NCBI GenBank assembly: GCA_033763135.1
Contig: JANRKY010000148.1
Coordinates: forward strand, 2,277 to 66,276
Length of the DNA: 64,000 nucleotides
Direction of reading: 5' to 3'
Origin: Blastocatellia bacterium
Lineage (GTDB): Bacteria; Acidobacteriota; Blastocatellia; RBC074
In this document: in pieces, positions 2,061-44,948 of the stretch
Layout: each line of letters opens with the position of its first letter
Position numbering within the stretch: position 1 is the first letter of the stretch
Made by a program: the position numbers and the translations under genes
Notes under the pieces: generated by a model
Seen by the model: the letters and a program-made list of their open reading frames with translations, nothing else
Database searches by the model: none
Told to the model about the DNA's origin: nothing

Positions 2061-3352
2061 TCGTACCGGATCGTCGCCGCGCGCGCGTGGGCCTCGAACC
2101 CCTCCGCGAGCGCGAGCCGTTCAATGGAGGCCGCGGTCCGCATCAATTCTTCCCGCGTGTAGCGAATGATGCTCGTCCGCTTCAGAAAATCGTAGACGCC
2201 GAGCGCCGAGGAGAAGCGCGCCGTCCCGCCCGTGGGCAGGACGTGATTGGTGCCGGCGAAATAGTCGCCGACGGGCTCGGGCGACCAGGGGCCGACAAAG
2301 ATTGCGCCCGCGTGCCGGAGCGCGGCGGCGGTGGCTTCGCTGTCGGCGGTGATGACCTCGACATGTTCCGGCGCGATCTCATCGGACAGCCGGCAGGCGG
2401 CGGCGAGCGAATCGACGACGATCAGCGCGCCGTAATCGGCCAGCGAACGCTCGACGATCGCGCGACGCGAGAGCGTCGCCGTCTGCCGGATCAGCTCTTC
2501 GCGAACGGCGTTCGCGAGGGCTTCGCTCGGCGTGATCAGAATCGCGGCCGCATCTTCCGAATGCTCCGCCTGCGAGAGCAGATCGGCGGCGACGAAATCC
2601 GCCCGCGCCGTGTCGTCCGCGATCACGACGATCTCGCTCGGCCCCGCGATCGAATCGATGTCCACCATCCCGTAGACCAGTTTCTTGGTCGCCGCGACCC
2701 AGCTGTTTCCGGGGCCGACGATCTTGTCGACGCGCGGAATCGAGGCCGTCCCGCAGGCCAGCGCCGCGACGGCCTGGGCCCCGCCGATCGTATAGACCTC
2801 GAACAATCCCAGCTCATTCAACACCGCGGCGATGACCGGGTTCTGGCGAAACTGCGCGGGCGGCGTGACGACGACGATGCGCTCCACGCCGGCGACCTGC
2901 GCGGGGATGGCGTTCATCATCACCGTCGAGGGATAGGCCGCGGTCCCGCCCGGAACATAGAGGCCGACGATCTCCAGCGGACGCACCCGCTGTCCGAGCC
3001 GGACGCCGTTTTCGCGCGGGATCTCCCAGTCCTTCGTCAACTGATGTTCGTGATAATGCCGGATGTTGCCGATGGCTTCGCGCATGGCCGCGATCAACTC
3101 GTCATCGACCTGCGCGGCGAGCGCCTCGATCTCGGCCCGCTCGACGCGCAGCGTCGCCGGCGTCAGCGCGACCCCGTCGAATCGCGCGGTGAATTCGATC
3201 AACGCGTCATCGCCCCGCTCGCGGATCTCGCGAAGAATCGCGTCCGCGCGGGTGAGAATGTCGCTGTTGAGCCCGATTCCGCGGTTCAGAATCCGGCTGA
3301 TCTTTGCTTCCCCCTTCGCGGAGGTTCCGGCGAACTTCAAGATATCGATCAT
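2057..3352 (-). CDS. hisD: histidinol dehydrogenase
   Basis: 431 aa with conserved HisD blocks (IVDIDSIAGPSEIVVIAD, HSEDAAAILITPS). Confidence 0.9.
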   Translation of the reverse strand: MIDILKFAGTSAKGEAKISRILNRGIGLNSDILTRADAILREIRERGDDALIEFTARFDGVALTPATLRVERAEIEALAAQVDDELIAAMREAIGNIRHYHEHQLTKDWEIPRENGVRLGQRVRPLEIVGLYVPGGTAAYPSTVMMNAIPAQVAGVERIVVVTPPAQFRQNPVIAAVLNELGLFEVYTIGGAQAVAALACGTASIPRVDKIVGPGNSWVAATKKLVYGMVDIDSIAGPSEIVVIADDTARADFVAADLLSQAEHSEDAAAILITPSEALANAVREELIRQTATLSRRAIVERSLADYGALIVVDSLAAACRLSDEIAPEHVEVITADSEATAAALRHAGAIFVGPWSPEPVGDYFAGTNHVLPTGGTARFSSALGVYDFLKRTSIIRYTREELMRTAASIERLALAEGFEAHARAATIRYE

Positions 3353-5352: not shown

Positions 5353-6301
5353 TGGATGAATCTTTTCCTTGTCGAATCCGCCGCCCCTGATTATCGACGG
5401 TGACCTCCATCGCCCGGGCGGCGACGCCGGCGGCGGCCAGTCGGTCCGTCATGGTCGCGGCGATCCCCGCGCAGTTGCCCGAGGCGAAGGCGATCATCGT
5501 GGAGCCCGCGCCGCTGATGGCGACGCCGAGCAGGCCCGGATGCCTGTGCGTCTCGTCATTGAGTTTCAGCACGTCGCTCAGGCCCGGCGCGAGCGGCGCG
5601 CGATAGGGTTGATGCAGCAGATCCCGCAGCGCCTCATTGAGCAGATCGAACCGCTTCTCGGCCAGCGCGGCCTGCAGCAGCGCCGCGCGCTGCAGGTTAT
5701 AGATCGCGTCGTGGCGCGAGACCATTTTCGGCAGGACGGCGCGCATTCGCGCAGTCTCCATCTCGATCTCGGGGATGCAGACGACGATCTTCACTTCCTC
5801 GGGCCAGGGACGGCGGACCGCAATCAGCGCGCGCCGCTCATTGCCGGAATAGTCGACGCCCTCCCGAACGACGGCAACGACCATCCCGCCGAGCATGCTC
5901 GGCGCCAGATTGTCGCCGTGCCCCTCGAAGTGGAGCGCATAATTGAAGAACTCGTCATGATCGAGCGTCTCTCCCGCGAGCGCCTCATAGACCGACAGCC
6001 CGGCGATGATCGCGCTGCTGCTGCTGCCCAGCCCCCGCGAAAGCGGAATCTCGCTGTCGACGTGCAGGCGCGCGCCGGGAATGCGCCGTTTGCGCTGCTC
6101 GGCGGCGTGAAGCGCCGCGCGAACGATCAGATTCGTCTCGTCCCGGGGCACCTTCTCGGCGCCTTCCCCGGTCGGCACGATCTCGAAACCGCTCTCCCGC
6201 GGCTCCACCCGGATTCGAAGGTGGAGCGAAAGCGCCAGGCCACAGGTGTCGAAACTCGCCCCCAGATTCGACGTGGAGGCTGGAACGATGATCTCGGTCA
6301 T
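5318..6301 (-). CDS. thrB: homoserine kinase
   Basis: 327-aa GHMP kinase with motif [16 protein letters not shown]. The last 10 codons ([10 protein letters not shown]) are encoded by an arm of the CACGAAG palindrome. Confidence 0.85.
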
Positions 6302-6322
6302 AGATAAAAGATGCCGGGCGAC

Positions 6323-7360
6323 TCACGCCCCGATATAGCGAGAATAGAGCGAACGGGCGATGTTCGGATCATCCGTCCCCTTGATGATGCTGCGCGCATC
6401 CGAGAAGACCGTGATCTCGTGCTCTCCCAGGAGAAATTTCAGCAAAAAGCGATTGTAGCTCACCTCTCCCAGATCGCGGAGCTGCGCGGCGAGCAACTCG
6501 AAATCGATCGCGCCGGGCGCGGCCGGGGTGATCTGCACGGCATTCCGGCCGCAGAGCGCGGCGACCATCTGCCCGCCGCGGACGCTGAGATACTCGAAGC
6601 GCCCCTCGCCGCAGGTCGGGCAGTCCGGCATGCGTTCGCGGACATTGAGCCGCGTAAAGGAGTTGAGCCAGAGATCGAACTGCATCAGCGCCCCGTGCAG
6701 CCGATCGAACTGGCCGGTCAGCAGTTTGAGGGTCTCGGCGATCTGATACGACGAGATGGTCGCGATGATCGGCAGGATCACGCCGGCCGTGTCGCACGTC
6801 GGCGACGTCCCGGGCGGCGGCATCTCGGGAAAGACGCAGCGCAGACAAGGCGTCACGCCCGGACGAATCGTCATCTGCACGCCATAGGCGCCGACCGCCG
6901 CGCCGTAGACCCAGGGCTTCCCCAGCTTGACGGCCGCGTCATTGAGCAGAAACCGCACCTCGAAATTGTCCGCCCCATCCAGCACGACATCCACGTCCTG
7001 AATCAGCGCTTCGATATTGGCGTAGTTGACGTCCTTGACGACGGCCTCGACCGCCACGTCCGAGTTGATGCGATTGACGCGCGCGGCGGCGGCCACCGCC
7101 TTCGGAAGCCGGTCGGCGACGTCGCGCTCCTCGAACATGATCTGCCGGTGAAGATTCGACTCTTCGATAAAGTCGCGGTCCACCAGCCGCAGAAAGCCGA
7201 CGCCCGCGCGCGCCAGCATCTCAGCCTGCATCGCGCCGAGCGCGCCGCAACCGATGATGGTCACGCGACTCGCGGCCAGTCGCTCCTGCCCTTGTCTGCC
7301 GATGCCGGAAAAGAGAATTTGGCGGGAATATCTGTCGGGATTGGGAGAAGCTGCATCCAT
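6323..7360 (-). CDS. ThiF/MoeB-family E1-like adenylyltransferase with about 95-aa C-terminal extension
   Basis: 345 aa. The N-terminus reads [33 protein letters not shown] (a Rossmann nucleotide-binding motif). Two CxxC pairs are present (CLRC, CPTCGEG). The C-terminal tail is uncharacterized. Confidence 0.7.
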
Positions 7361-11460: not shown

Positions 11461-14004
<2,544 letters not shown>

Positions 14005-14081
14005 GCGGGAAAAGCACGGACAGGATGAACAGGATTTTTCAGGATTTCACAGGATGAGCCCGACACAGGCTTGAATCCTGT

Positions 14082-15489
<1,408 letters not shown>

Positions 15490-16052: not shown

Positions 16053-16640
16053 TCAGCGCATCTTTCCGATCGTCTGCTGCCAGGTGAGCGACTTGCGGAG
16101 CACGGCCAGCCGCGCGCGCTCCGTCGCGTCCGTCAGTCGATCGAGCTGATCGACGATCGCCGTCAGCAGCGGGAAGGCGAAGAGGTTCGCATGCGTCGAG
16201 ACGTGGGCGTAATAGGCGAGCTGCAGCGTGCCGCGGCCGTCCCGATGAAAGGCCAGGATCTCCTCCGTCGTCATCGTCTCGACGTGCGAATTGATCGGCA
16301 GCACGACCCGCGGGACGCCCTGATGCGCGCCCTGGGCATCCTGCCAGCCGAGCAGGAGAAGGCCGATCAGCACGCCCTGCTCGTTCAGATAGTCCGGCAT
16401 GAAGACATTGTTCAGTTCGCGCGGCGTCGTCAGGCGCGGACCGAAATTGCCGTAGTCGGGGTTGATCAGCAGTGAATCGTAGATCACGCCCACCACGACC
16501 CGCTCGCCCGCGGAAATCCGCACGAACTGCCCGAAGTGATAATCGTCCATCTTCGGCGAAGCGTCCGTCTCCAGCGAATCGAGGATGCGCGCGGAATAGT
16601 CGACGTGCGAATTGGATTTGATGATCTTCGCTATCAGCAT
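16053..16640 (-). CDS. hypothetical protein
   Basis: 195-aa ORF directly downstream of wzt on the same strand. No motif recognised. Confidence 0.4.
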   Translation of the reverse strand: MLIAKIIKSNSHVDYSARILDSLETDASPKMDDYHFGQFVRISAGERVVVGVIYDSLLINPDYGNFGPRLTTPRELNNVFMPDYLNEQGVLIGLLLLGWQDAQGAHQGVPRVVLPINSHVETMTTEEILAFHRDGRGTLQLAYYAHVSTHANLFAFPLLTAIVDQLDRLTDATERARLAVLRKSLTWQQTIGKMR

Positions 16641-16657
16641 GGTGATCTCCTCCCTCC

Positions 16658-16762
16658 GACCGGGCCAGTATACGCGACGCGGCGAGAAGCGCGACGCGGC
16701 GAAAAAAAATCATCCTCGCCGCGTCGCCGCGTCGCTCTCCTCGCCGCGTCGCCAGTTCGCTT
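16658..16762. repeat. CGACGCGGCG-unit palindromic element overlapping the wzt 3' end
   Basis: cgcgacgcggcgagaagcgcgacgcggcgaaaaaaaatcatcctcgccgcgtcgccgcgtcgctctcctcgccgcgtcgcc. Related unit repeats lie at 7425..7445 and 45737..45768. Confidence 0.75.
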
Positions 16763-17993
16763 CGAACTTCATCAGGCCGTGGATCACGCCTTCGGTGACG
16801 ACGTTCAACTGATAGAGCTGGTTGTGGACGTCGGCCGGATCGCCCCAGCCCGGTTCGCCGCTCTCGGTGAAGACCTTGAGCGACAGATAATAGACGTTGT
16901 GCGAGAGTTCGAGATTCGGGATGTGCAGCTCGATGGCGCCCGTCCCGGCCGCAACGGGCATGGACGTGGGGTGCGTGTCGAAATTGTTGATGCTGCCGAT
17001 GAAGACACCGTCATAGCGGTGCAGATCGACCGCGAAGATGGGGGCGGGATAATCGGCGTCGGCTTCGTATTCGAGCCGGATCGTCATGGACTCGCCGGTC
17101 TTGAAGACCCAGGTGGCCTCTCCGCGGGGATTGATCGCCTCGACGCGGGTGAAGCGAATGCGGCCGTTTCCCCATCGCGAGCCGGTCAGTTTCAACTCGC
17201 GCAGGATATCGTCGTGATCGGGCGAGCCGATGCCGCCGCCCTGCGCTGTCTGATGCAATCGCTGGTCTTCGAGCTTCGCGCAGAAGGCCTGATAGGCCGT
17301 CACGACTTCGCGGGCGTTGCCGGTCATCGCGACCTTGCCGCCCTCGATCCACATCGCGCTCGTGCAGAACCGCTGGACCAGCCCGGGATCGTGCGAGACG
17401 AAGAGGACCGTCTTCCCCGCCTTGCGGAAATATTCCATGCGGTCGAGCGATTTGCGCTGAAAATAGACGTCGCCGACCGAGAGCGCCTCATCCACGATCA
17501 GCACATCGGGATCGACGTGAATCGCCGACGCGAACGCGAGCCGCATGAGCATGCCCGTCGAATAGGTCTTGACCGGCTGATCGACAAAGGCCTCCAGCTC
17601 GGCGAACTGCACGATGACGTCCATTCGCCGGGCCATCTCCTCTTCGCTGAAGCCGAGAATCTGTCCGCTCAGCAGGATGTTCTCCCGCCCCGTATATTCG
17701 GGATTGAACCCGCTGCCGAGTTCGAGCAGCGCCGTCACGCGCCCCTCGACGCGCACCTCGCCCCGCGTCGGCTGGAGCACGCCCGCGATGATCTGCAGCA
17801 GCGTCGTCTTCCCCGCCCCATTCCGCCCGATGATCCCGACCGCCTCGCCCGTCGGCACTTCGAGGCTCACCTCCTCCAGCGCCCAGAAATCGCGATGATA
17901 CTTCCGCCGCCCGCGCAGCAGAATCTCCTTCAACCGGCCCGCCGGCGAATCATAGAGTCGATAGAGTTTTGAAACGTTCTGTACGGAGATCAC
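16710..17993 (-). CDS. polysaccharide/O-antigen ABC transporter ATP-binding protein (Wzt/TagH type) with C-terminal carbohydrate-binding domain
   Basis: 427 aa with Walker A (GRNGAGKTT), ABC signature (YSTGMLMRLAFA) and Walker B (LIVDEALSVGD). A roughly 160-aa beta-rich C-terminal extension follows, as in Wzt proteins. Confidence 0.8.
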   Translation of the reverse strand: MISVQNVSKLYRLYDSPAGRLKEILLRGRRKYHRDFWALEEVSLEVPTGEAVGIIGRNGAGKTTLLQIIAGVLQPTRGEVRVEGRVTALLELGSGFNPEYTGRENILLSGQILGFSEEEMARRMDVIVQFAELEAFVDQPVKTYSTGMLMRLAFASAIHVDPDVLIVDEALSVGDVYFQRKSLDRMEYFRKAGKTVLFVSHDPGLVQRFCTSAMWIEGGKVAMTGNAREVVTAYQAFCAKLEDQRLHQTAQGGGIGSPDHDDILRELKLTGSRWGNGRIRFTRVEAINPRGEATWVFKTGESMTIRLEYEADADYPAPIFAVDLHRYDGVFIGSINNFDTHPTSMPVAAGTGAIELHIPNLELSHNVYYLSLKVFTESGEPGWGDPADVHNQLYQLNVVTEGVIHGLMKFEANWRRGEESDAATRRG

Positions 17994-18156
17994 AGTGAAA
18001 ACAGGCCTTGATTATCGTTTCGGCCATATTGGCGTGGAGATGGACCACAAAACCGCAGAGGCACGGAGAGAGCCGGAAAACAGGGACGCCTCTGCTCTCC
18101 GCGTCGCCACTCCGCGACCTTGCGGCAGCTTCAGGCTCATTGTGCCGAAATGATGA

Positions 18157-18573
18157 TCAAGGCCCCTCTTCCTGATAAGGGCCAAGATAGAGCGCGGCGT
18201 CGTAATCCACTACAGCCAGACGAACCTTCTGCAGCCACCCCTCCCGCCCTAAAAGATTACGTGGCAGACCGTAGTCGGCAGCGAAGTAGACAACCGAATC
18301 GAACTCCAACCCAAGCGTGGTGAGCGTGACGGCGTGACCAAATGCGGTGAGCGAGCCGGCCAGCGTATTGAAGATGCGGCGATGGCCTGTTTCGATATCA
18401 ACGCCCAGAGCCTCCGCAATCTCTCGCATGAAAAGGCACACCTGCCCGCCAGTATCAATCTTGGCCAGACAAATAATGGAAGTAGCTCCAAAACCAAGAC
18501 GCGCTTCTATCGTAATGCCCTCAAGTCGCGTGTCGTAGCTTTCACGGGCGGCAAAGGCAAGTTGATGCGACAT
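18157..18573 (-). CDS. retropepsin-like (clan AA) aspartyl protease, putative
   Basis: Probable start MSHQLAF at 18573. Contains AKIDTGGQV, which resembles the D-T/S-G-A/G active-site motif. The gene lies in a locally low-GC segment. Confidence 0.5.
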   Translation of the reverse strand: MSHQLAFAARESYDTRLEGITIEARLGFGATSIICLAKIDTGGQVCLFMREIAEALGVDIETGHRRIFNTLAGSLTAFGHAVTLTTLGLEFDSVVYFAADYGLPRNLLGREGWLQKVRLAVVDYDAALYLGPYQEEGP

Positions 18574-18575
18574 AG

Positions 18576-18995
18576 TCAAAGAATGAACGGAGGCGCATCG
18601 CTGGGTTCGACCAAAACCAGCAGCGCATCTAAATGGCCCGCATCTTGCGCGGCCCGGTGAACGGCCTTGGCATTTGTGCCGTGACTGACGAGGCGCCCGA
18701 ATTTGAGCGCGACCCATTGCCCGGCGTACTCATCACGATGATCCGCCAGCCATTGTCGATCAGCGCTAAAGTCACGCAGTTCAGCCGCTCGCACCGATCC
18801 GCTACGGCCCTCCAGTCCCTGAGTGTCATTAATTTCTGTAGAAACATATTGACTCTCTGATTCATCGGGCTCAGGCTGAATACTCGAGCCTCCTTGTTCA
18901 AGTAGATCAGCCAGGCGTTTAATGAGTTTGACTTGCTCGCTTGCCGAGAGTTGCTGCACCTGGTTCATGATCAAATCGAGTTGATTAACAGCCAT
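18576..18995 (-). CDS. hypothetical protein, partner of the aspartyl protease (possible antitoxin-like or DUF protein)
   Basis: 139 aa. A strong Shine-Dalgarno sequence AAGGAGGTG lies 6 nt upstream of the ATG at 18995. Its stop abuts the protease start. The gene is low in GC. Confidence 0.5.
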   Translation of the reverse strand: MAVNQLDLIMNQVQQLSASEQVKLIKRLADLLEQGGSSIQPEPDESESQYVSTEINDTQGLEGRSGSVRAAELRDFSADRQWLADHRDEYAGQWVALKFGRLVSHGTNAKAVHRAAQDAGHLDALLVLVEPSDAPPFIL

Positions 18996-19069
18996 TGCTT
19001 CACCTCCTTGCCGTTCAAATGGAGATTATACGCAATCATGTGGGAGTTGAACCAGAAGCGTCCGGAAGA

Positions 19070-21115
19070 TCAATCATACAATTCGTGCGGATAGCGGTCG
19101 AACTGTTCGCTCTGTTTGCGCCCGACGGCGTAGATGTTGTCGCCGCGCAGCTCCCGCGGGACGCCGGTCGCGTCGAGCGATTGGAGGAGCGCCTCATCGG
19201 TGGCGTGCCAGACATCCTCGGCAAAGAGGCGCACGACCTTGAAGCCGGCCGCTTCGAGAACGGTGCGGACGTCGCCGGGCGCGTATTCCCGGCTGTGGCG
19301 ATCGGCGGAATTGTTCCGATTATAGAGGCCGTAGATGTTCGGGCTGCGCCCGGCCATGGCCTCGCCGACGCTGAAGGCGCTGGCGATGTTCGGCGTCGTC
19401 AGAATCAGCAGGCCGCCCCAGCGGAGGATGCGGTTGAGTTCCGTCAGCATGTGCATCGGGTCTTCGCGCAGGTGTTCGATCAGCTCGCAGCAGAGGACGA
19501 CATCGAAATGGTTGTCGGGGAACGGAAATCGATCGTGCTCGGCGTCCACGTTCTTCATCGTGAACGAGGCCTCCTCGCCGGTCACGGCGTGGCGGAACGA
19601 CTGGACCTGCTCGCGCGTCGGCCCCTCCCAGAAGTTGGTCACGGCGATTTCGTCATAGCTGCCGTAGCGGCGGATGATCAGCGGCATCTGGCAATAGCTG
19701 CTCAGTTCGAGCAGGCGCCGGCCCGGGCCGCCCTGCGGGACGAGTTCGACCGTGCGCAGCAGCCGGGCGCCGTGCTTGCGCAGATAGCCGGTCGCGTTCG
19801 CGTCCTCGGCATAAAAGCCCAGCACGTGATCGAGCGCCTCTTCGCGATCGAAGGCGATCGTCGGCGCCTCCTTGAAATCGAGCCGGTAGTTGGGCGTGGG
19901 CGGGACGGTCCGCGGATGTCCGCGCCGTTCCAGAATCCGCCCGGCGAGATCGAGATAGCGGGCCGCGGACTTTTCGATCGCGCACTCGCCGCGGACCCAA
20001 TCCATCGCCCGCCGGCTCAGGGCCTCGCGAAGCGTCGGTCGATGCGCGAGCGCGTGCAGCCGCTTGTAGAGATCGCCCTCTTCATTCGGCCCGATGGGCA
20101 CCTTCATCACCACATCGTCGGGAAGCTCGCCGAACTGGCCGAAGTCCGTGACGATCACCGGCTTGCCCGTGCCGAGCGAGCGCACCAGCGTCCCCGAGGT
20201 CTCGCCGGCCGTCGGATAGCGCAGATTGACGATCACGTCGACCGCCTTCAAATACCGGAAGAAATCGCGCTCGGTCACATAGCCCGTGATGCGCACGCGA
20301 TCGCGCAGATTCATCTCTTCGATGAGCGGCGCGACGCTCCATTTCCAGTGATCCTCGCCGACGATCAGATAGAGCGCGTTCGGCAGAATCCGCAGCAGAC
20401 GCTGAAACGCCGCCAGCACGGCCGGAATCCGCTTCGATTGCGTGACGAACCCGTGCGAGGCGATCACCCAGGCATCCTCGGGAATCCCGAGCGATCGGCG
20501 GCACTCCGCCTTGTCCATCGCATCGAGCGCGAAGGCCTGCGGCGCAAGGTGGTGCGGGATCAACTCGACCGGCGCCCGCAGGCCTTCGAGCTGCGAGAGC
20601 GCGTACTCGTTGTGGACGATGACGCCGAGGCTTCGCGAGACGATTCGCCGGTTGAGCGGCATGAGAAACTGCTGATAGTCGCTGCCGACGCTGTTGGCGC
20701 GCATATCGGCCGCGCGGGCGCCGCGCCGGCCGTAGGCGTAGAACATCTCGTTCCAATAGGCCTCTTCATCCTGTCGGCCGAGCGTCTTCCAGGCGATCAG
20801 GTGATGCAGACAGTGCTCGTGCAGCACGAGCAGGCCCGGCGTCTCGATCGCGCGCTCATAAACGAATTCGTGATAGGGGTTGTTGCCCTGGTGATAGATG
20901 CAGAGATCGAAGGGCTGCTGTCGATGGATCTCGTCGAAGTGGGTTGCGTCGTGGACGGCGAAGTGAGGGCTGTCCGCATTCAGCCGCAGCTGGTCGGCCT
21001 GTTCCACAAAGACGCTGATCTCCGCGCCGCGCGCCAGATGCGGCAGCAATTCCGCATTGTAATCGGCGATGCCCGACTTGCTCGGGGGGAGCGGCGTGAA
21101 ATAGGCCAGACGCAT
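19070..21115 (-). CDS. bifunctional glycosyltransferase family 4 / class I SAM-dependent methyltransferase
   Basis: 681 aa. The N-terminal part has a GT4 fold (GT1-type EX7E region, ..GETSGTLVRSLGTGKPVIVTD). The C-terminal part is a methyltransferase (LELSSYCQ.., ILRWGGLLILTTPN). Confidence 0.75.
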   Translation of the reverse strand: MRLAYFTPLPPSKSGIADYNAELLPHLARGAEISVFVEQADQLRLNADSPHFAVHDATHFDEIHRQQPFDLCIYHQGNNPYHEFVYERAIETPGLLVLHEHCLHHLIAWKTLGRQDEEAYWNEMFYAYGRRGARAADMRANSVGSDYQQFLMPLNRRIVSRSLGVIVHNEYALSQLEGLRAPVELIPHHLAPQAFALDAMDKAECRRSLGIPEDAWVIASHGFVTQSKRIPAVLAAFQRLLRILPNALYLIVGEDHWKWSVAPLIEEMNLRDRVRITGYVTERDFFRYLKAVDVIVNLRYPTAGETSGTLVRSLGTGKPVIVTDFGQFGELPDDVVMKVPIGPNEEGDLYKRLHALAHRPTLREALSRRAMDWVRGECAIEKSAARYLDLAGRILERRGHPRTVPPTPNYRLDFKEAPTIAFDREEALDHVLGFYAEDANATGYLRKHGARLLRTVELVPQGGPGRRLLELSSYCQMPLIIRRYGSYDEIAVTNFWEGPTREQVQSFRHAVTGEEASFTMKNVDAEHDRFPFPDNHFDVVLCCELIEHLREDPMHMLTELNRILRWGGLLILTTPNIASAFSVGEAMAGRSPNIYGLYNRNNSADRHSREYAPGDVRTVLEAAGFKVVRLFAEDVWHATDEALLQSLDATGVPRELRGDNIYAVGRKQSEQFDRYPHELYD

Positions 21116-21138
21116 AGAGTATGGTCGCGAGCGGGCGC

Positions 21139-22002
21139 TCAGGCGATCCGGACCGCCGGCTGCACCCGAACCCGGTAAAGATAGGCGCCGAGTGCGCCGA
21201 TGAAGGAGATCAGGGCGATGAACTGCGACGTGGACAGATTCATGATCTCTCCGCGCGGATCGTCGCGCCAGAACTCGATGATGAATCGCGCAACGGCATA
21301 GAGGATCGCATAGGCCAGCATCACCTGCCCGTAAAATCGCCGACGGCCGAAGAGCGCCAGCAGGGCGAGAAAGATCACGATCATCGCCGCGGACTCATAG
21401 AGCTGGGTCGGATGAAGCCGGATCGGCGCGAGCAGCCCGCCCAGGCGCTCGGCCCAGACATTCTGCTGAATCGGGTCGGCGAGATGCGCGACGATCGTCG
21501 GAACGCTCGTGATCTCGTGGCCGCGATCGGTGAAATGGACGCCGCACCAGGCCGTCGTCGGCCTTCCCCAGCAGCAGCCGGCGCTGAAACAGCCGAGCCG
21601 CCCGATCGCCTGTCCGATCGCAATCCCCGGCGCGAAGGCATCGGCCGTCCGCCACCACGGCAGCTTGTACCGCCACATCACCACCACCGAGGCCAGCAAC
21701 GCCGCCAGAAACCCGCCATAATAGACGCCCGCCGACAGCAGAAAGTCCCGCGTAAAGATCTCGCTGAATCCCCGGAGCGAGTACTCGTCCCATTCCGTGA
21801 TCACCAGCAGCAGCTTGGAGCCGACCAGCGACGAGGCCAGCACCCACAATCCGAGATCATAGACCTTCTGCTTGTCCAGCCCGTCCCGCTCGGCGAGGCG
21901 CGACATCACGAGCAACCCGACGATGAACGAGATCGCCAGCAGCAGGCCGTAGGTATTGAAGACGAAACTGGTGTAAGGAAGCTTGAAAAGTTCGGGGAAC
22001 AT
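21139..22002 (-). CDS. lgt: prolipoprotein diacylglyceryl transferase
   Basis: 287 aa, polytopic. Lgt signature GQAIGRLGCFSAGCCWGRP. Confidence 0.9.
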   Translation of the reverse strand: MFPELFKLPYTSFVFNTYGLLLAISFIVGLLVMSRLAERDGLDKQKVYDLGLWVLASSLVGSKLLLVITEWDEYSLRGFSEIFTRDFLLSAGVYYGGFLAALLASVVVMWRYKLPWWRTADAFAPGIAIGQAIGRLGCFSAGCCWGRPTTAWCGVHFTDRGHEITSVPTIVAHLADPIQQNVWAERLGGLLAPIRLHPTQLYESAAMIVIFLALLALFGRRRFYGQVMLAYAILYAVARFIIEFWRDDPRGEIMNLSTSQFIALISFIGALGAYLYRVRVQPAVRIA

Positions 22003-22025
22003 AGGGTCGCAAGCAGATCCGCACG

Positions 22026-22526
22026 TTATTCGGTGGCGGCGGGCGCCGGATTGGCGCGCGCCTCCCAGATCATCTCGATCGCGAGCAGCACGGCGCCCAC
22101 GCAGATCGCGGAATCGGCGACATTGAAGGTCGGCCAGACATACTGGTCGCGCCAGTGCACCTCAATGAAATCGACCACCTCTCCCAGCCGGATGCGGTCG
22201 ATCATATTCCCGACGATCCCCGCGAGCAGCAACCCGAGCGCAAGATTCGCCCGACGCTGCCACGCCGCCGTCCGCCACAGATAATTCAACACAAAGACCG
22301 CCGCGAAGATCGAGATGACGGCAAAGATCCATCGCACATTGAGACTGCTTTCGGCGAACATGCTGAACGCCACGCCGCGGTTCGTGGCGTAACTGAAGCG
22401 AAAATAGCCGGGAAGGACCTCGATGGTCATCACCGGCCGGAGTTTCAGCGTCGCCCACGCCTTCGTGGCCTGATCGGCGACGACCAGAAACAGCGCGAGA
22501 ATCAGATAGGGCAATTTCGCTCTCAT
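22026..22526 (-). CDS. lspA: lipoprotein signal peptidase II
   Basis: 166 aa with conserved LspA blocks (NRGVAFS, VVDFIEV.., FNVADSAI). Confidence 0.9.
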   Translation of the reverse strand: MRAKLPYLILALFLVVADQATKAWATLKLRPVMTIEVLPGYFRFSYATNRGVAFSMFAESSLNVRWIFAVISIFAAVFVLNYLWRTAAWQRRANLALGLLLAGIVGNMIDRIRLGEVVDFIEVHWRDQYVWPTFNVADSAICVGAVLLAIEMIWEARANPAPAATE

Positions 22527-22888
22527 TCCGATGCCTTCCCCGGGGAGATCTCTTCAATGATCGATTCCCCGCTCGACTCGTCCCCCGACGTCCATCGCCA
22601 CCGCTCGTGCATCCGCAGCCGTCCGTCGGGCAGCCGCTCCGGCGTGGAGCGACAGATCCCGCTCCGCCATTCGCCCGCCGCATTCAGATGCTGATACCGC
22701 ATCTCCAGACAATCCTCCTCGTCGACCCGCGCGAGCAGCGTGCCGAACCGGATCTCTCCGCCGGCATAGGTCGCCCACACGATCTCGCCCTCCTGCCGGT
22801 AATGAAAGATCGTCTCGGCCGACACCTCGCCGTTCTCGGTGTTGGCCACTGAGGCGAACCGGCGGTCATTGTAATTGATTCCATGCAT
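22523..22888 (-). CDS. hypothetical protein
   Basis: 121-aa ORF between ileS and lspA. It overlaps the lspA start by 4 bp. Confidence 0.45.
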   Translation of the reverse strand: MHGINYNDRRFASVANTENGEVSAETIFHYRQEGEIVWATYAGGEIRFGTLLARVDEEDCLEMRYQHLNAAGEWRSGICRSTPERLPDGRLRMHERWRWTSGDESSGESIIEEISPGKASE

Positions 22889-22939
22889 GAGTCTTATGGG
22901 AACCCATAGGACCTGTAAGTCCCTTAGGTCCCATCCGTC

Positions 22940-25738
22940 CTATTCCGCCAACCGCTCATCCAGATTCCCGGCGCACCGCAGACATGCCCCCGGATATTTC
23001 GCATTCGCGCCGACGTCGATCGTGTAGTGCCAGCAGCGCTCGCATTTCGCGCCGGCCGCCTTTTCGACGGCGACGCTCAGGCCGGCCCCCTCGAGGAGCG
23101 TGACCTGCGAGACGATGAAATTGAACCGCAGATCCTCGCCGAACGATTCGAGAAACGCCTTCGTCTCGGGATCGGCGGCGATCGTCACATGCGCTTCGAG
23201 GCCGGCGCCGATCAACTTGGCGTTGCGGGCGTCTTCGAGCGACTTCATGACGGCGGTTCGAACCTCGAACAGCCGCTCATAGCGCGCCCGAAGCGCATCG
23301 TCGATCCAGACGGTCTCCACCGCCGGGAAGACCGTCAGGTGAACCGAGGCCGCCTCGGCCGCGGCGCCCGGGATGTTCTCCCAGATCTCGTCGGCCGTGA
23401 AGGCGAGCAGCGGCGCCAGCAAACGGGCCATGCGGTGAACGATCTCGTACACGGCCGTCTGCGCCGACCGCCGCGCCTCCGATTTCGGCGCGCTGGTATA
23501 GAGCCGATCCTTCAAAATATCGAAATAGAGCGCCGACAATTCGACCGTCGCGAACGAATAGAGGATCTGATAGACCTCGGTGAACTCGTATCCCTCATAA
23601 GCGGCCAGCACCTTCCGATTGACTTCGTTCAGTTCGGCCAGGGCCCAGCGATCGATTTCGACCATCCGGTCATAGGGAACGCGATCCGCCTTCGGATCGA
23701 AGTCCGCCAGATTCCCCAGGCAATAGCGCGCCGTGTTGCGCAGCTTGCGATAGGAATCGGAGAGGCGATTGATGATCTCCTGCCCGATGCGCATGTCCTC
23801 GTGATAATTGAGCGCGGCGCACCACAGGCGCAGAATGTCCGCGCCATACTGCCGGGTGAACTTCTCGGGCGCGAGGGCGTCGCCCTTCGATTTCGACATC
23901 TTCTTGCCGTCTTCATCGACGACCCAGCCGTTCATGATCACGGCGCGATAGGGCGCGGCGCCCTTCGCCGCCAGCCCGACCACCAGCGAAGAGTTGAACC
24001 AGCCGCGAAACTGATCGCCGCCTTCGAGATACACGTCGGCCGGATAGGGCAGCCCCCGCGGTTCGAGCACGCCGAGCGAACTCGCTCCCGAATCGAACCA
24101 GACATCGAGGATGTCCATCTCCTTCGTCAACTTCTCGGAGCCGCACTTGCCGCATTTCGCCCCTTCCGGAAGCAGATCCTTCGACTCCAGTTCGTACCAG
24201 ACGTCGGCGGAGGACTCCTCGAAGAGATTGGCCACGTGCTCGATCACCTTCTGGTCGAGCAGCGCCTCGCCGCAATCCTCGCAATAAAAGACCGTGATCG
24301 GCACGCCCCACGCCCGCTGCCGCGAGATGTTCCAGTCCGGCCGGTCCTTGAACATGTTCTTCATCCGCTCGGCGCCCCACGACGGATACCACGAAACCTT
24401 GTCGCTCGCGGCGATCGCCTCGGCATTGAGCCCGCTCTGCTCCATCGAAATGAACCACTGTGGCGTCGCCCGGAAGATCACCGGATTGTGGCATCGCCAG
24501 CAATGCGGATAGGAGTGGTTGAACTTCTCCGCCTTGAGCAGCGCGCCGATCGATTCGAGATGCGCCATCACGGCCTTGTTGCCGTCCGGGTCGTTCTTGC
24601 TGAGCGCCACCACCCGCTGACCGGCGAAATGCTCCACATCCTTCATGAAATAGCCGCGCCCGTCGACTGGATTGTAGATCTCCAGGCCGTACTCGCGGCC
24701 GATCAGAAAGTCCTCGTAGCCGTGGCCCGGCGCCGTATGCACCGCGCCCGTGCCCGCGTCGAGCGTCACGTGATCGCCGACCATCAGCAGGCTGTCGCGG
24801 TCGATGAAGGGATGGCGGGCGCGGAGCCGGTCGAACTGCGCGCCGGCATAGGTTCCGATGACCTCGTGGCCGCTCCAGCCGAGTTTCTTCGCCACGTCTT
24901 CGAGCAGCCCGCTCGCGACGATGAAGACCTCTTCGCCCACCGCGACCGCGTGATACTCGAATTTCGGATGCAGGGAGATGCCCAGGTTGGCCGGCAGCGT
25001 CCAGGGCGTCGTCGTCCAGATGACGATGCTCACCGATCGGCCCGCGAGTCCGGCGTCGAGTTTCCCGGCGTCGGGAAAGGCGAACTTCACATAGATCGAA
25101 TAGCTCGAATGGTCTTCATACTCGACCTCGGCCTCGGCCAGCGACGTCACGCAACTGATGCACCAGTGCACCGGCCGCGACCCCTTGTAGACCGCGCCGC
25201 GCTCGACGAACTTGCCGAACGCCCGGACGATGTTGGCCTGATAGGTCGGATTCATCGTCACATACGGGTCGTTCCACTCGCCCAGAATGCCCAGCCGCTT
25301 GAAATCCTCGCACTGCAGCTTGACGAACTTGTCCGCGTGCGCCCGCGCCGCCTTGCGGATCGTCAGGCAGTCGAGTTCGATCTTGTTCTTCTTCAGCTCC
25401 TCTTCGACCTTGATCTCGATCGGCAGACCGTGGCAGTCCCAGCCCGGAATGTACGGCGACCAGTGGCCCATCATCGACCGCGACTTCACGACGAAATCCT
25501 TGATCGTCTTGTTGAGCGCGTGGCCGATGTGAATATTGCCGTTCGCGTACGGCGGGCCGTCGTGCAGCACAAAGAGCGGATGGCCCGCGCGCGCCTCTTT
25601 CAGTCTGGCGTAAAGGTCCATGGCCTCCCATCGCTGCAGTCGCAGAGGCTCGTTCTGCGCCAGATTTCCCTTGAGGGGAAACGAGGTGTCCGGCAGGTTG
25701 ACGGTGGCTTTCAGGTCGAGTTTCGCTTCGGTTGACAT
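22940..25738 (-). CDS. ileS: isoleucine--tRNA ligase
   Basis: 932 aa with HIGH (PYANGNIHIGHAL) and KMSKS motifs and C-terminal zinc-binding cysteines. Confidence 0.95.
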   Translation of the reverse strand: MSTEAKLDLKATVNLPDTSFPLKGNLAQNEPLRLQRWEAMDLYARLKEARAGHPLFVLHDGPPYANGNIHIGHALNKTIKDFVVKSRSMMGHWSPYIPGWDCHGLPIEIKVEEELKKNKIELDCLTIRKAARAHADKFVKLQCEDFKRLGILGEWNDPYVTMNPTYQANIVRAFGKFVERGAVYKGSRPVHWCISCVTSLAEAEVEYEDHSSYSIYVKFAFPDAGKLDAGLAGRSVSIVIWTTTPWTLPANLGISLHPKFEYHAVAVGEEVFIVASGLLEDVAKKLGWSGHEVIGTYAGAQFDRLRARHPFIDRDSLLMVGDHVTLDAGTGAVHTAPGHGYEDFLIGREYGLEIYNPVDGRGYFMKDVEHFAGQRVVALSKNDPDGNKAVMAHLESIGALLKAEKFNHSYPHCWRCHNPVIFRATPQWFISMEQSGLNAEAIAASDKVSWYPSWGAERMKNMFKDRPDWNISRQRAWGVPITVFYCEDCGEALLDQKVIEHVANLFEESSADVWYELESKDLLPEGAKCGKCGSEKLTKEMDILDVWFDSGASSLGVLEPRGLPYPADVYLEGGDQFRGWFNSSLVVGLAAKGAAPYRAVIMNGWVVDEDGKKMSKSKGDALAPEKFTRQYGADILRLWCAALNYHEDMRIGQEIINRLSDSYRKLRNTARYCLGNLADFDPKADRVPYDRMVEIDRWALAELNEVNRKVLAAYEGYEFTEVYQILYSFATVELSALYFDILKDRLYTSAPKSEARRSAQTAVYEIVHRMARLLAPLLAFTADEIWENIPGAAAEAASVHLTVFPAVETVWIDDALRARYERLFEVRTAVMKSLEDARNAKLIGAGLEAHVTIAADPETKAFLESFGEDLRFNFIVSQVTLLEGAGLSVAVEKAAGAKCERCWHYTIDVGANAKYPGACLRCAGNLDERLAE

Positions 25739-44185: not shown

Positions 44186-44948
44186 AATGAAGGTATCTAT
44201 GATCGATCGTTCCCGGGCGCGATCGTCCTCGGCCCATCCGTCACTGGTCTTCCAGGTGATCGACTAGTATCTTCGATCAGCCATCAACTGACAACCGTTG
44301 AATGAAGAATGGCCCTTGATCATCGGGTCGGCCACGCTGGAGCGGGAGATCGGCCACAGAGCCACTGAGGCGCGGAGAAAGCCCGGAAAACAGGATCTTC
44401 TCCGCTCTCGCCTCCGTGCCTCCGTGGCAACTTTGAACTCATTTTGGCCCAAACGATGATCAAGGCCGAAGAATGACCAATGACGGACGGCCGGCGCCCG
44501 ATCAATCGATATCGAGGAGGCTTTCCGTAACGCGGAGGGGAGCGGGTCTGGCCGGGGCTTGCTGCGCCTTGACGAGTTCGGCCACTTCCGGCGCCAGACG
44601 GCGGGCCAGTTCGCCGAGAAGCGTCTCGGAAAGGCGCGCGGTGACCTGTTCAACGACGCGGTCCACGATCTCATCGACCACCTGCTGGGGAATTACGGCC
44701 GCCTCCGGCGCCGCTGCCGTGGCAACATTTGCGTGAACGGATTGAAGGGGGGCCTCGGAAACGGGCGCGTGGAGCTCCGGCAGCACATCGTCGAGTTCGA
44801 GCAGGTCGTCGAACTCTTCCAGACCGGCCGCGGGCGGCTCGCTGTTCGAAATCTCGGGCTCCTCGGCCGGGATGACGCGCGCCTCCGCCGCCGCGGGCTG
44901 CGAAAGCGGCTCGCTCTCGACGGGCGCGAGTTCGAGCGGGACGATCTC

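Follow-up and report, generated by a model that had tools for sequence, protein, structure and literature searches.

Retropepsin-like aspartic proteases share two sequence hallmarks, a hydrophobic-hydrophobic-Asp-Thr/Ser-Gly-Ser/Thr/Ala motif and a downstream hydrophobic-hydrophobic-Gly motif (PMC4140852). A characterised bacterial representative, APRc (RC1339) of Rickettsia conorii (PMC4140852; PDB 5c9b/5c9d/5c9f), has three predicted N-terminal transmembrane helices, processes surface autotransporters and is conserved by vertical descent within Rickettsia, with no partner gene dedicated to it (PMC4140852). Here we describe a two-gene module in a 64,000-nucleotide stretch of DNA (hereafter the window; contig JANRKY010000148.1, positions 2,277 to 66,276) from the Blastocatellia bacterium assembly GCA_033763135.1 (Acidobacteriota). 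A first-pass annotation had marked an AT-rich islet of two genes with a Shine-Dalgarno (SD) sequence and the peptide KIDTGGQV, and these elements lie where it had placed them, both genes being on the minus strand within 17994-19069. The upstream gene, geneA, encodes a DUF5678 protein, and the downstream gene, geneB, a retropepsin-like aspartic protease (Table 1). With a probability of roughly 0.55, we read the pair as a type II toxin-antitoxin (TA)-like module in which the DUF5678 protein neutralises an aspartic-protease effector, the genomic context being what points to this function.

Type II antitoxins are typically built from a conserved effector-facing C-terminal domain and an exchangeable N-terminal DNA-binding module. 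With the systems that combine antitoxins of the ribbon-helix-helix (RHH)/FitA, UPF0175 or TIGR02574 type with PIN or RelE/ParE toxins, the module described here has in common a small, labile-looking upstream protein translationally coupled to a downstream effector, a promoter-like region of its own, multiple copies, variable contexts, low GC content and a swappable N-terminus in the putative antitoxin. It differs in that the effector would be an aspartic protease and the neutralising part a folded DUF5678 domain with a tail rather than a short disordered peptide. To our knowledge, an aspartic-protease toxin class has not been described in TA systems.

geneB is a retropepsin-like protease by predicted fold and motifs

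An AlphaFold2 (AF2) model of geneB, built on 40 homologues, had a predicted local distance difference test score (pLDDT) of 87.9 and a predicted template modelling score (pTM) of 0.81. When this model was compared with the PDB using Foldseek, the top 50 matches were all retropepsins at a probability of 1.0, including APRc (5c9d, 5c9f) and the proteases of human immunodeficiency viruses (HIV) 1 and 2, simian (SIV) and feline (FIV) immunodeficiency viruses, equine infectious anaemia virus (EIAV) and human T-lymphotropic virus (HTLV), with E values of about 4e-5 and TM scores of up to 0.67-0.75 for the top retropepsins (0.6-0.75 to target for the retroviral proteases). The active-site motif reads A-K-I-D40-T-G-G, with the Asp, Thr and Gly present and Gly at the sixth position, and R105-N-L-L-G109 provides the hydrophobic-hydrophobic-Gly (psi-loop) motif, L107-L108-G109 following D40 by 67 residues. 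The protease alignment shows little or no variation at D40, G42 (at least 90%), C46, R50, H80, R105, L108, G109, W113 and D123. Both the predicted fold and the motifs place geneB among the retropepsin-like (clan AA) aspartic proteases; the first-pass annotation had noted its resemblance to the aspartyl-protease motif, and the predicted model has the aspartic-protease fold that this reading calls for, together with the D-T-G and Leu-Leu-Gly elements.

The match of geneB to curated family profiles was borderline. In the Pfam comparison suggested by the first-pass annotation, PF13650 matched geneB at 22.6 bits (E 1.8e-4), just under its gathering score of 24.3, and PF13975 at E 6e-3, and geneA was identified as a DUF5678 protein. 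About a quarter of the close geneB homologues have a precomputed PF13650 match; an NCBIfam scan of geneB returned no clan-AA model, and a profile of the protease family found no sequence-level match among all PDB chains. An exhaustive profile search at E ≤1e-10 yielded 475 clusters at 50% identity, nearly all of single-domain proteins of about 135 residues. No Rosetta-stone fusions of protease and DUF5678 occurred among the longer homologues, whose open reading frames (ORFs) appear to be frameshifted or truncated. Asp and Gly of the active-site motif are invariant across 52 family members, and the middle residue is Thr or Ser in 28, Pro in 22, Arg in 1 and Leu in 1; more distant relatives have the canonical DTGAS.

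With the retroviral proteases (MEROPS A2: HIV-1, HIV-2, SIV, FIV, EIAV and HTLV), geneB has the fold and the Asp-Thr-Gly in common, and its Arg-Asn followed by hydrophobic-hydrophobic-Gly resembles the I84-I85-G86-R87-N88 region of HIV protease. Unlike these enzymes, geneB is not embedded in a polyprotein. It has additional strands at its N-terminus, exceeds the retroviral proteases in length by about 40 residues and stands in another genetic context; the fourth motif residue is Gly in the window copy, and Thr is replaced by Pro in 42% of the family. The best structural match is APRc, likewise a single retropepsin domain with a D-T-G loop, for which a homodimer would be expected as for geneB, and in which Leu-Leu-Gly follows D140 by 68 residues (PMC4140852). 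In contrast to APRc, geneB is DUF5678-paired, multi-copy, horizontally mobile and soluble, a free-standing, cytoplasmic protein of 138 residues with no transmembrane segment.

Compared with the nearest homologous modules, the ratio of nonsynonymous to synonymous substitution rates (dN/dS) is 0.09-0.13 for geneA and 0.06-0.15 for geneB. Both are thus under purifying selection and therefore real genes. Public annotation lists geneA as 'DUF5678 domain-containing protein' and geneB as 'aspartyl protease family/hypothetical protein', and an exact match to geneB (P0001) is found in a metagenome-assembled genome (MAG) of Blastocatellia (Acidobacteriota). The two proteins had been given as 139 residues each, which is correct for geneA and one residue too long for geneB. 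A 186-residue ORF at 18157-18717 was considered as the true geneB and dropped, since homologues begin at the ATG at 18573 and the long ORF overlaps geneA.

geneA has an antitoxin-like predicted architecture

The Pfam model DUF5678 (PF18929) matches residues 89-130 of geneA with an E value of 2.8e-5, above its gathering score, and TIGR02574, 'addiction module component', matches residues 13-40 weakly (E 0.06). The AF2 model of geneA has an N-terminal helical hairpin (residues 3-35), a disordered linker (35-70), a confidently predicted alpha-beta-beta-alpha-beta DUF5678 domain (77-128) and a floppy tail. In alignment A2 the residues D75, W82, D88, Y90 and W94-V-A96 are invariant, the C-terminal tail EPSDAPPFIL is nearly so, and the linker varies from 0 to about 60 residues, conserved neither in length nor in sequence. 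Conservation extends beyond the N-terminal boundary of the Pfam model by about 20 residues (LRDFxADRQWL) and also takes in the C-terminal tail. Across the family the tails vary (PPFIL, PFIF, PFVNI, IINWG, PFAGF, HYMGF, YTVF), and all have a short hydrophobic or aromatic end after an acidic VE(P/D)xD segment. As modelled, this succession of helical N-terminus, disordered linker and folded C-terminal domain looks like that of an antitoxin.

Relatives of geneA with a different N-terminus were also identified. The C-terminal DUF5678 domain is kept in all of these swaps, and the N-terminus is RHH_1 in P0230 and P0262, a FitA-like RHH in P0246 and P0257, and UPF0175 in P0165 and P0180. P0230 is followed after 2 nt by a full-length family protease (L131) and P0257 by a truncated one (L130), and P0165 precedes an N6_Mtase gene with no protease. 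Structural searches with the partner itself were less informative: its profile found only a spurious myosin match among all PDB chains, Foldseek of the geneA model against the PDB returned nothing significant, and the best Foldseek matches in BFVD were viral DUF5678 proteins of no assigned function. DUF5678 has no assigned function, and literature searches turned up a single passing mention of the family.

Two variants of the partner were observed among the module loci. In L010 (4373-4996) the partner has two tandem DUF5678 domains and lies upstream of its protease. In L014 a segment at 3059-3167, 1.5 kb from the two-gene module of that locus, has 77% identity to the 5' portion of geneA, which encodes the N-terminal helical module; other genes therefore contain this helical module as well.

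The two genes are consistently paired and recur in unrelated contexts

A scan of a single genome from each species gave 54 loci, which by sequence all belong to Acidobacteriota/Blastocatellia MAGs, though a few bear other taxon labels. Two begin at contig ends and were left out of the pairing count. In each of the 52 assessable Acidobacteriota loci the protease gene is immediately preceded by a co-oriented DUF5678 ORF, the two being separated by -1 to 20 nt (mode 2). Pairwise identities among the proteases also vary together with those among the partners (Mantel r 0.68, a value reached in 0 of 2000 permutations). The partner that the first-pass annotation had described as tightly coupled is thus co-inherited wherever it could be assessed.

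It had also proposed looking for the same pair in other contexts. This revealed up to four copies of the module per MAG (for example L021, L032, L046 and L053), with GC content below that of the flanks in 50 of 59 loci, and 97 immediate neighbour proteins assigned to 100 Pfam families, mostly housekeeping. The nearest copy, L008, has 83% nucleotide identity to the window module and stands in an unrelated context. The protease gene is split or truncated in L019, L046, L051 and L130, and preferential decay of the protease (four loci, against one for the partner) is as expected of a toxin.

Matches to catalogued mobile or defence elements were not obtained. PADLOC gave no match and PHROGs no meaningful one, neither protein had a tblastn match among 72,556 plasmids, and 2.9 million viral contigs held no protease relative and one weak DUF5678-like segment, inside an unrelated 189-residue protein with no protease neighbour. 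Literature searches combining DUF5678, PF13650 or retropepsin-like with toxin-antitoxin or defence gave nothing relevant except the APRc paper.

Several individual loci deserve mention. The most divergent clade of modules, at about 41% identity (L050, L053, L054, L056, L057, L059 and L060; ~5417-6727), has the pair between genes for a phosphotransferase of the APH family and a class II tRNA synthetase of the Asp/Lys/Asn type. Type IIG/ISP restriction-modification genes (N6_Mtase with Eco57I or Type_ISP_C) follow the module directly in L001 (4442-7825) and L002 (4489-8289), and a few copies are near Uma2 or TIR_2 proteins. A frameshift in L012 (4600-5000) falls between the N-terminal helix and the DUF5678 domain of the partner. 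The labels 'uncultured Heliomicrobium/Heliobacteriaceae' on L016, L020, L024, L028, L030, L034, L036, L047, L048, L056 and L060 look doubtful, as these loci have Blastocatellia-type modules inside.

The pair is a horizontal insertion next to an orphan wzt gene

Orthologous metagenomic loci were fetched with the Wzt protein of the window, and the window proteins were mapped onto them. About 29 such loci keep the order ileS-(hypothetical gene)-lspA-lgt-GT/MT-wzt, GT/MT being a glycosyltransferase/methyltransferase gene, with 33-210 nt from GT/MT to wzt and neither geneA, geneB nor wzm in this interval. DNA homology between the window and these loci is interrupted exactly from the end of GT/MT (stop, 19070) to the start of wzt (17992), and homology to the L008 module spans 19056-18896 and 18802-18170. 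From these latter limits and the conserved upstream boxes described below, the inserted unit therefore measures about 890 bp and has promoter-like sequence of its own. Around the insert, terminal direct or inverted repeats and target-site duplications were limited to short repeats at chance level; TTGATC is present at both junctions, where it overlaps the two stop codons. The pair is a horizontal insertion into a short hairpin spacer between the GT1/methyltransferase gene and an orphan wzt.

The composition of the insert is foreign as well. Its GC content is 0.549, whereas the window as a whole has 0.623 and the flanking genes range from 0.63 to 0.65, and only 3.7% of 840-bp windows across the 64 kb are as GC-poor; the contrast is real, and smaller than the 52-55 versus 67% given in the first-pass annotation. 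GC content at third codon positions (GC3) is the stronger compositional signal, at 0.51 and 0.58 in the module genes versus 0.81-0.84 in wzt, GT/MT, lgt, lspA and ileS. The codon usage is atypical, as had been noted: CAA accounts for 9 of 16 Gln codons in the module versus 3 of 92 in host genes, the ratio of ATT to ATC is reversed (9:3 versus 32:140), and TTA and ATA are enriched about 10-20-fold per 1000 codons, on counts of only 2 and 1. The foreign origin proposed for the islet is thus supported by both the roughly 29 empty sites and the composition, and relatives lack the pair at the position where vertical conservation would place it.

The islet had further been described as lying where the Wzm permease gene would be expected, and it was suggested that it may have displaced or interrupted the transporter operon. 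This proved wrong: besides the lack of wzm in the orthologous loci, the whole window contains no ABC-2 permease-like (Wzm) multi-transmembrane ORF of the right size, so the Wzt homologue stands as an orphan and no gene was lost to the insertion.

The putative regulatory signals of the module lie upstream of geneA. Its SD sequence, AAGGAGGTG, is at 19001-19009, 5 nt before the ATG, and is as strong as had been noted; a -10 box, TATAAT, lies at 19025-19030 and a -35-like element, TGGTTCAAC, at 19046-19054. L008 keeps TGGTTCAAC, TATAAT and AAGGAGGTGAA, and L022 retains the -10 box and the SD, in differing genomic contexts. A stricter scan of this 5' region called no promoter; its conservation suggests that it may function as one. 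The stop and start codons described as abutting nearly do so: the TGA of geneA (18576-18578) is followed after 2 nt by the ATG of geneB, with no overlap.

Table 1. Coordinates of the module and of adjoining features in the window.
Feature	Coordinates	Strand	Description
geneA	18576-18995	minus	139 aa; DUF5678 partner, antitoxin-like
geneB	18157-18573	minus	138 aa; contains KIDTGGQV; retropepsin-like aspartic protease (predicted fold)
Inserted segment (approximate extent)	18170-19056	minus	~890 bp; homology limits against orthologous loci and module copies
Module 5' region	18996-19056	minus	promoter-like boxes and SD, kept in other module copies
Imperfect palindromic element	17997-18171	none	~175 nt; inverted repeat, RNA fold and terminator scan
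wzt	16710-17993	minus	ABC_tran E 1e-24; Wzt_C E 2e-17

Proposed function and alternative explanations

Taken as a TA-like module, which among the options listed in the first-pass annotation fits the genomic context best, the pair would work as follows. geneB would be a homodimeric aspartic protease that acts as effector or toxin by cutting cellular proteins, and geneA its cognate neutraliser, binding the protease through the DUF5678 domain and the hydrophobic C-terminal tail. The tail might plug the substrate cleft or mimic the terminal beta-strand and so block dimerisation. The variable N-terminal module of the partner, here a TIGR02574-like helical hairpin, could serve operon autoregulation or recruitment, and the long disordered linker would make geneA labile, such that the protease would be released once geneA disappears through stress proteolysis, infection or loss of the whole module. 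A wider and more tentative proposal, to which we give somewhat less than even odds, is that pairs of DUF5678 and retropepsin-like proteins form an unrecognised TA or abortive-infection family, with hundreds of clusters at 50% identity that so far seem centred on Acidobacteriota, the source of every hit in the genome scan and the protein searches, in which a cytoplasmic homodimeric protease toxin would be neutralised by the DUF5678 domain and tail.

Several observations weigh against a TA-like function. In 22 of the 52 family members (42%) Pro stands in place of the catalytic Thr/Ser, and Arg and Leu do so in one each; D-P-G variants are unusual for active retropepsins and raise doubt about catalysis in part of the family. 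The window copy itself has Gly where the motif expects Ser, Thr or Ala after D-T-G, and its geneA has no recognised DNA-binding domain. L012, the only locus with a disrupted partner, has an intact protease beside the frameshifted partner gene; this may reflect either faulty assembly or a genuine departure from TA logic. One clade is syntenic in eight loci, in the order APH-pair-class II tRNA synthetase, and some copies are therefore inherited stably and vertically rather than being mobile. The lack of PADLOC, plasmid, phage and viral-contig matches counts on the same side, as does a literature with no experiment or publication on either protein.

The alternative that we take most seriously, although we consider it improbable, is a non-toxic regulatory pair, in which the protease processes its partner as a signal switch or DUF5678 is an activator or chaperone for dimerisation, with no role in addiction. 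Obligate pairing and co-variation fit an enzyme with a dedicated substrate or cofactor equally well, the long disordered linker of the partner could be cleaved, and retropepsins typically process themselves or serve as dedicated processing enzymes (PMC4140852); the clade held stably beside housekeeping genes and the protease retained in L012 next to a frameshifted partner also suit such a pair. Since the linker is conserved in neither length nor sequence, no conserved cleavage site is evident, and low-GC inserts that are multi-copy and independent of context, protease-first decay and antitoxin-type N-terminal swaps are together the signature of a TA system. Less probable again is an abortive-infection module of the same architecture, whose trigger would be a phage factor that removes or titrates the DUF5678 protein, the freed protease then cutting host or phage proteins. 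Protease effectors are found in other defence systems (Lit, CHAT and Lon-type), and the copies upstream of type IIG/ISP restriction-modification genes in L001 and L002, those near Uma2 and TIR_2 and the UPF0175-DUF5678 protein ahead of an N6_Mtase gene lend this reading some support. It is weakened by neighbours that are mostly housekeeping, by the absence of a consistent association with defence islands and of a PADLOC match, and by the position of the window copy between lgt/GT-MT and wzt, outside any defence island.

The remaining two explanations take up suggestions of the first-pass annotation and are largely refuted. The view of the pair as a gag-pro-like leftover of a retroelement, prophage or other mobile element, no longer having a role in the cell, draws on its foreign composition and on a fold common to retroviral proteases, and is now very unlikely: both ORFs are intact and under purifying selection, the same two-gene unit occurs in more than 50 loci with no reverse transcriptase, integrase, capsid or transposase gene, neither the 2.9 million viral contigs nor the plasmid collection holds a relative, and terminal repeats are absent. 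A working component of the polysaccharide-export operon that replaced or interrupted a wzm gene would agree with the location of the pair between the GT1/methyltransferase gene and wzt in the same orientation. We give this even less credence, and regard it as refuted by the empty-site comparison, in which about 29 orthologous loci run from GT/MT straight to wzt with neither wzm nor the pair; the window has no wzm-like multi-transmembrane ORF, and other genomes have the pair in unrelated contexts.

If the module is TA-like, an aspartic, retropepsin-type protease would be added to the known classes of toxins and effectors. It would also give DUF5678 a first function and provide a natural protein inhibitor, acting on dimerisation or the active site, of an HIV-protease-like enzyme, with a bearing on the regulation of retropepsins and on their debated prokaryotic history. 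The pair is a clean, small two-gene system that would be tractable in E. coli within weeks. The annotation of the locus is corrected in any case, with Wzt an orphan in an ileS-lspA-lgt-GT/MT-wzt block and the spacer beside it a recurrent landing site.

The surrounding block, the spacer and repeated elements

The conserved block of the window (16710-25738), ileS-(121-residue hypothetical protein)-lspA-lgt-GT1/methyltransferase fusion (681 residues)-wzt, is also present in L064-L096; common to about 30 Blastocatellia-like contigs, it links an orphan Wzt-type ATPase to lipoprotein-maturation genes. The ancestral GT/MT-wzt spacer measures 80-115 nt (L063-L067, L089, L090, L096, L113, L115) and contains a hairpin whose arms are tandem repeats of 6-7 nt, the repeat unit changing from genome to genome (GGGGAGT, GCGGATT, TGACACC, TTTGCC). 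As judged from these sequences, the spacer appears to be an unusual, fast-evolving, low-complexity structure resembling a terminator. Other small low-GC inserts occupy it elsewhere: L076 (270-1061) has a 197-residue ORF with no Pfam match, L107 (797-1737) a 151-residue HTH_17 protein, antitoxin-like, followed by a short ORF that by eye resembles the N-terminus of a PIN toxin, and L088 (5476-6001) a 124-residue ORF. The spacer is therefore a recurrent landing site for small accessory genes.

Between the insert and wzt lies the palindromic element of Table 1. It contains an inverted repeat, I1, with 46-nt arms that are 72% complementary, and folds as RNA at -52 kcal/mol (z -2.4), with a terminator-like hairpin and T-run on the minus strand at 18053-18066. 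The outer arms (GGCCTTGATCATCGTTTgGGCC...) enclose a GC-rich inner hairpin with the T-run, and geneB takes its stop codon and its last ~4 codons from one of these arms. A second copy at ~44355-44470 brings the number in the window to at least two, and by its sequence the element looks like a repeat of the repetitive extragenic palindromic (REP) or miniature inverted-repeat transposable element (MITE) type.

On the other side of wzt, most relatives have a gene of about 560 codons for a secreted amidohydrolase-like protein between wzt and a gene for a 195-residue hypothetical protein (for example L064 5473-7179, L066 3801-5483, L068 6917-8599 and L069 7214-9043); the window (16640-16710) and L095 are without it. 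Further along, in the intergenic region between topA and a methyltransferase gene (14004-14082), ORF translations on both strands contain the peptide motif 'EKxGQDxQDxSG', which hints at another repeated or palindromic DNA element.

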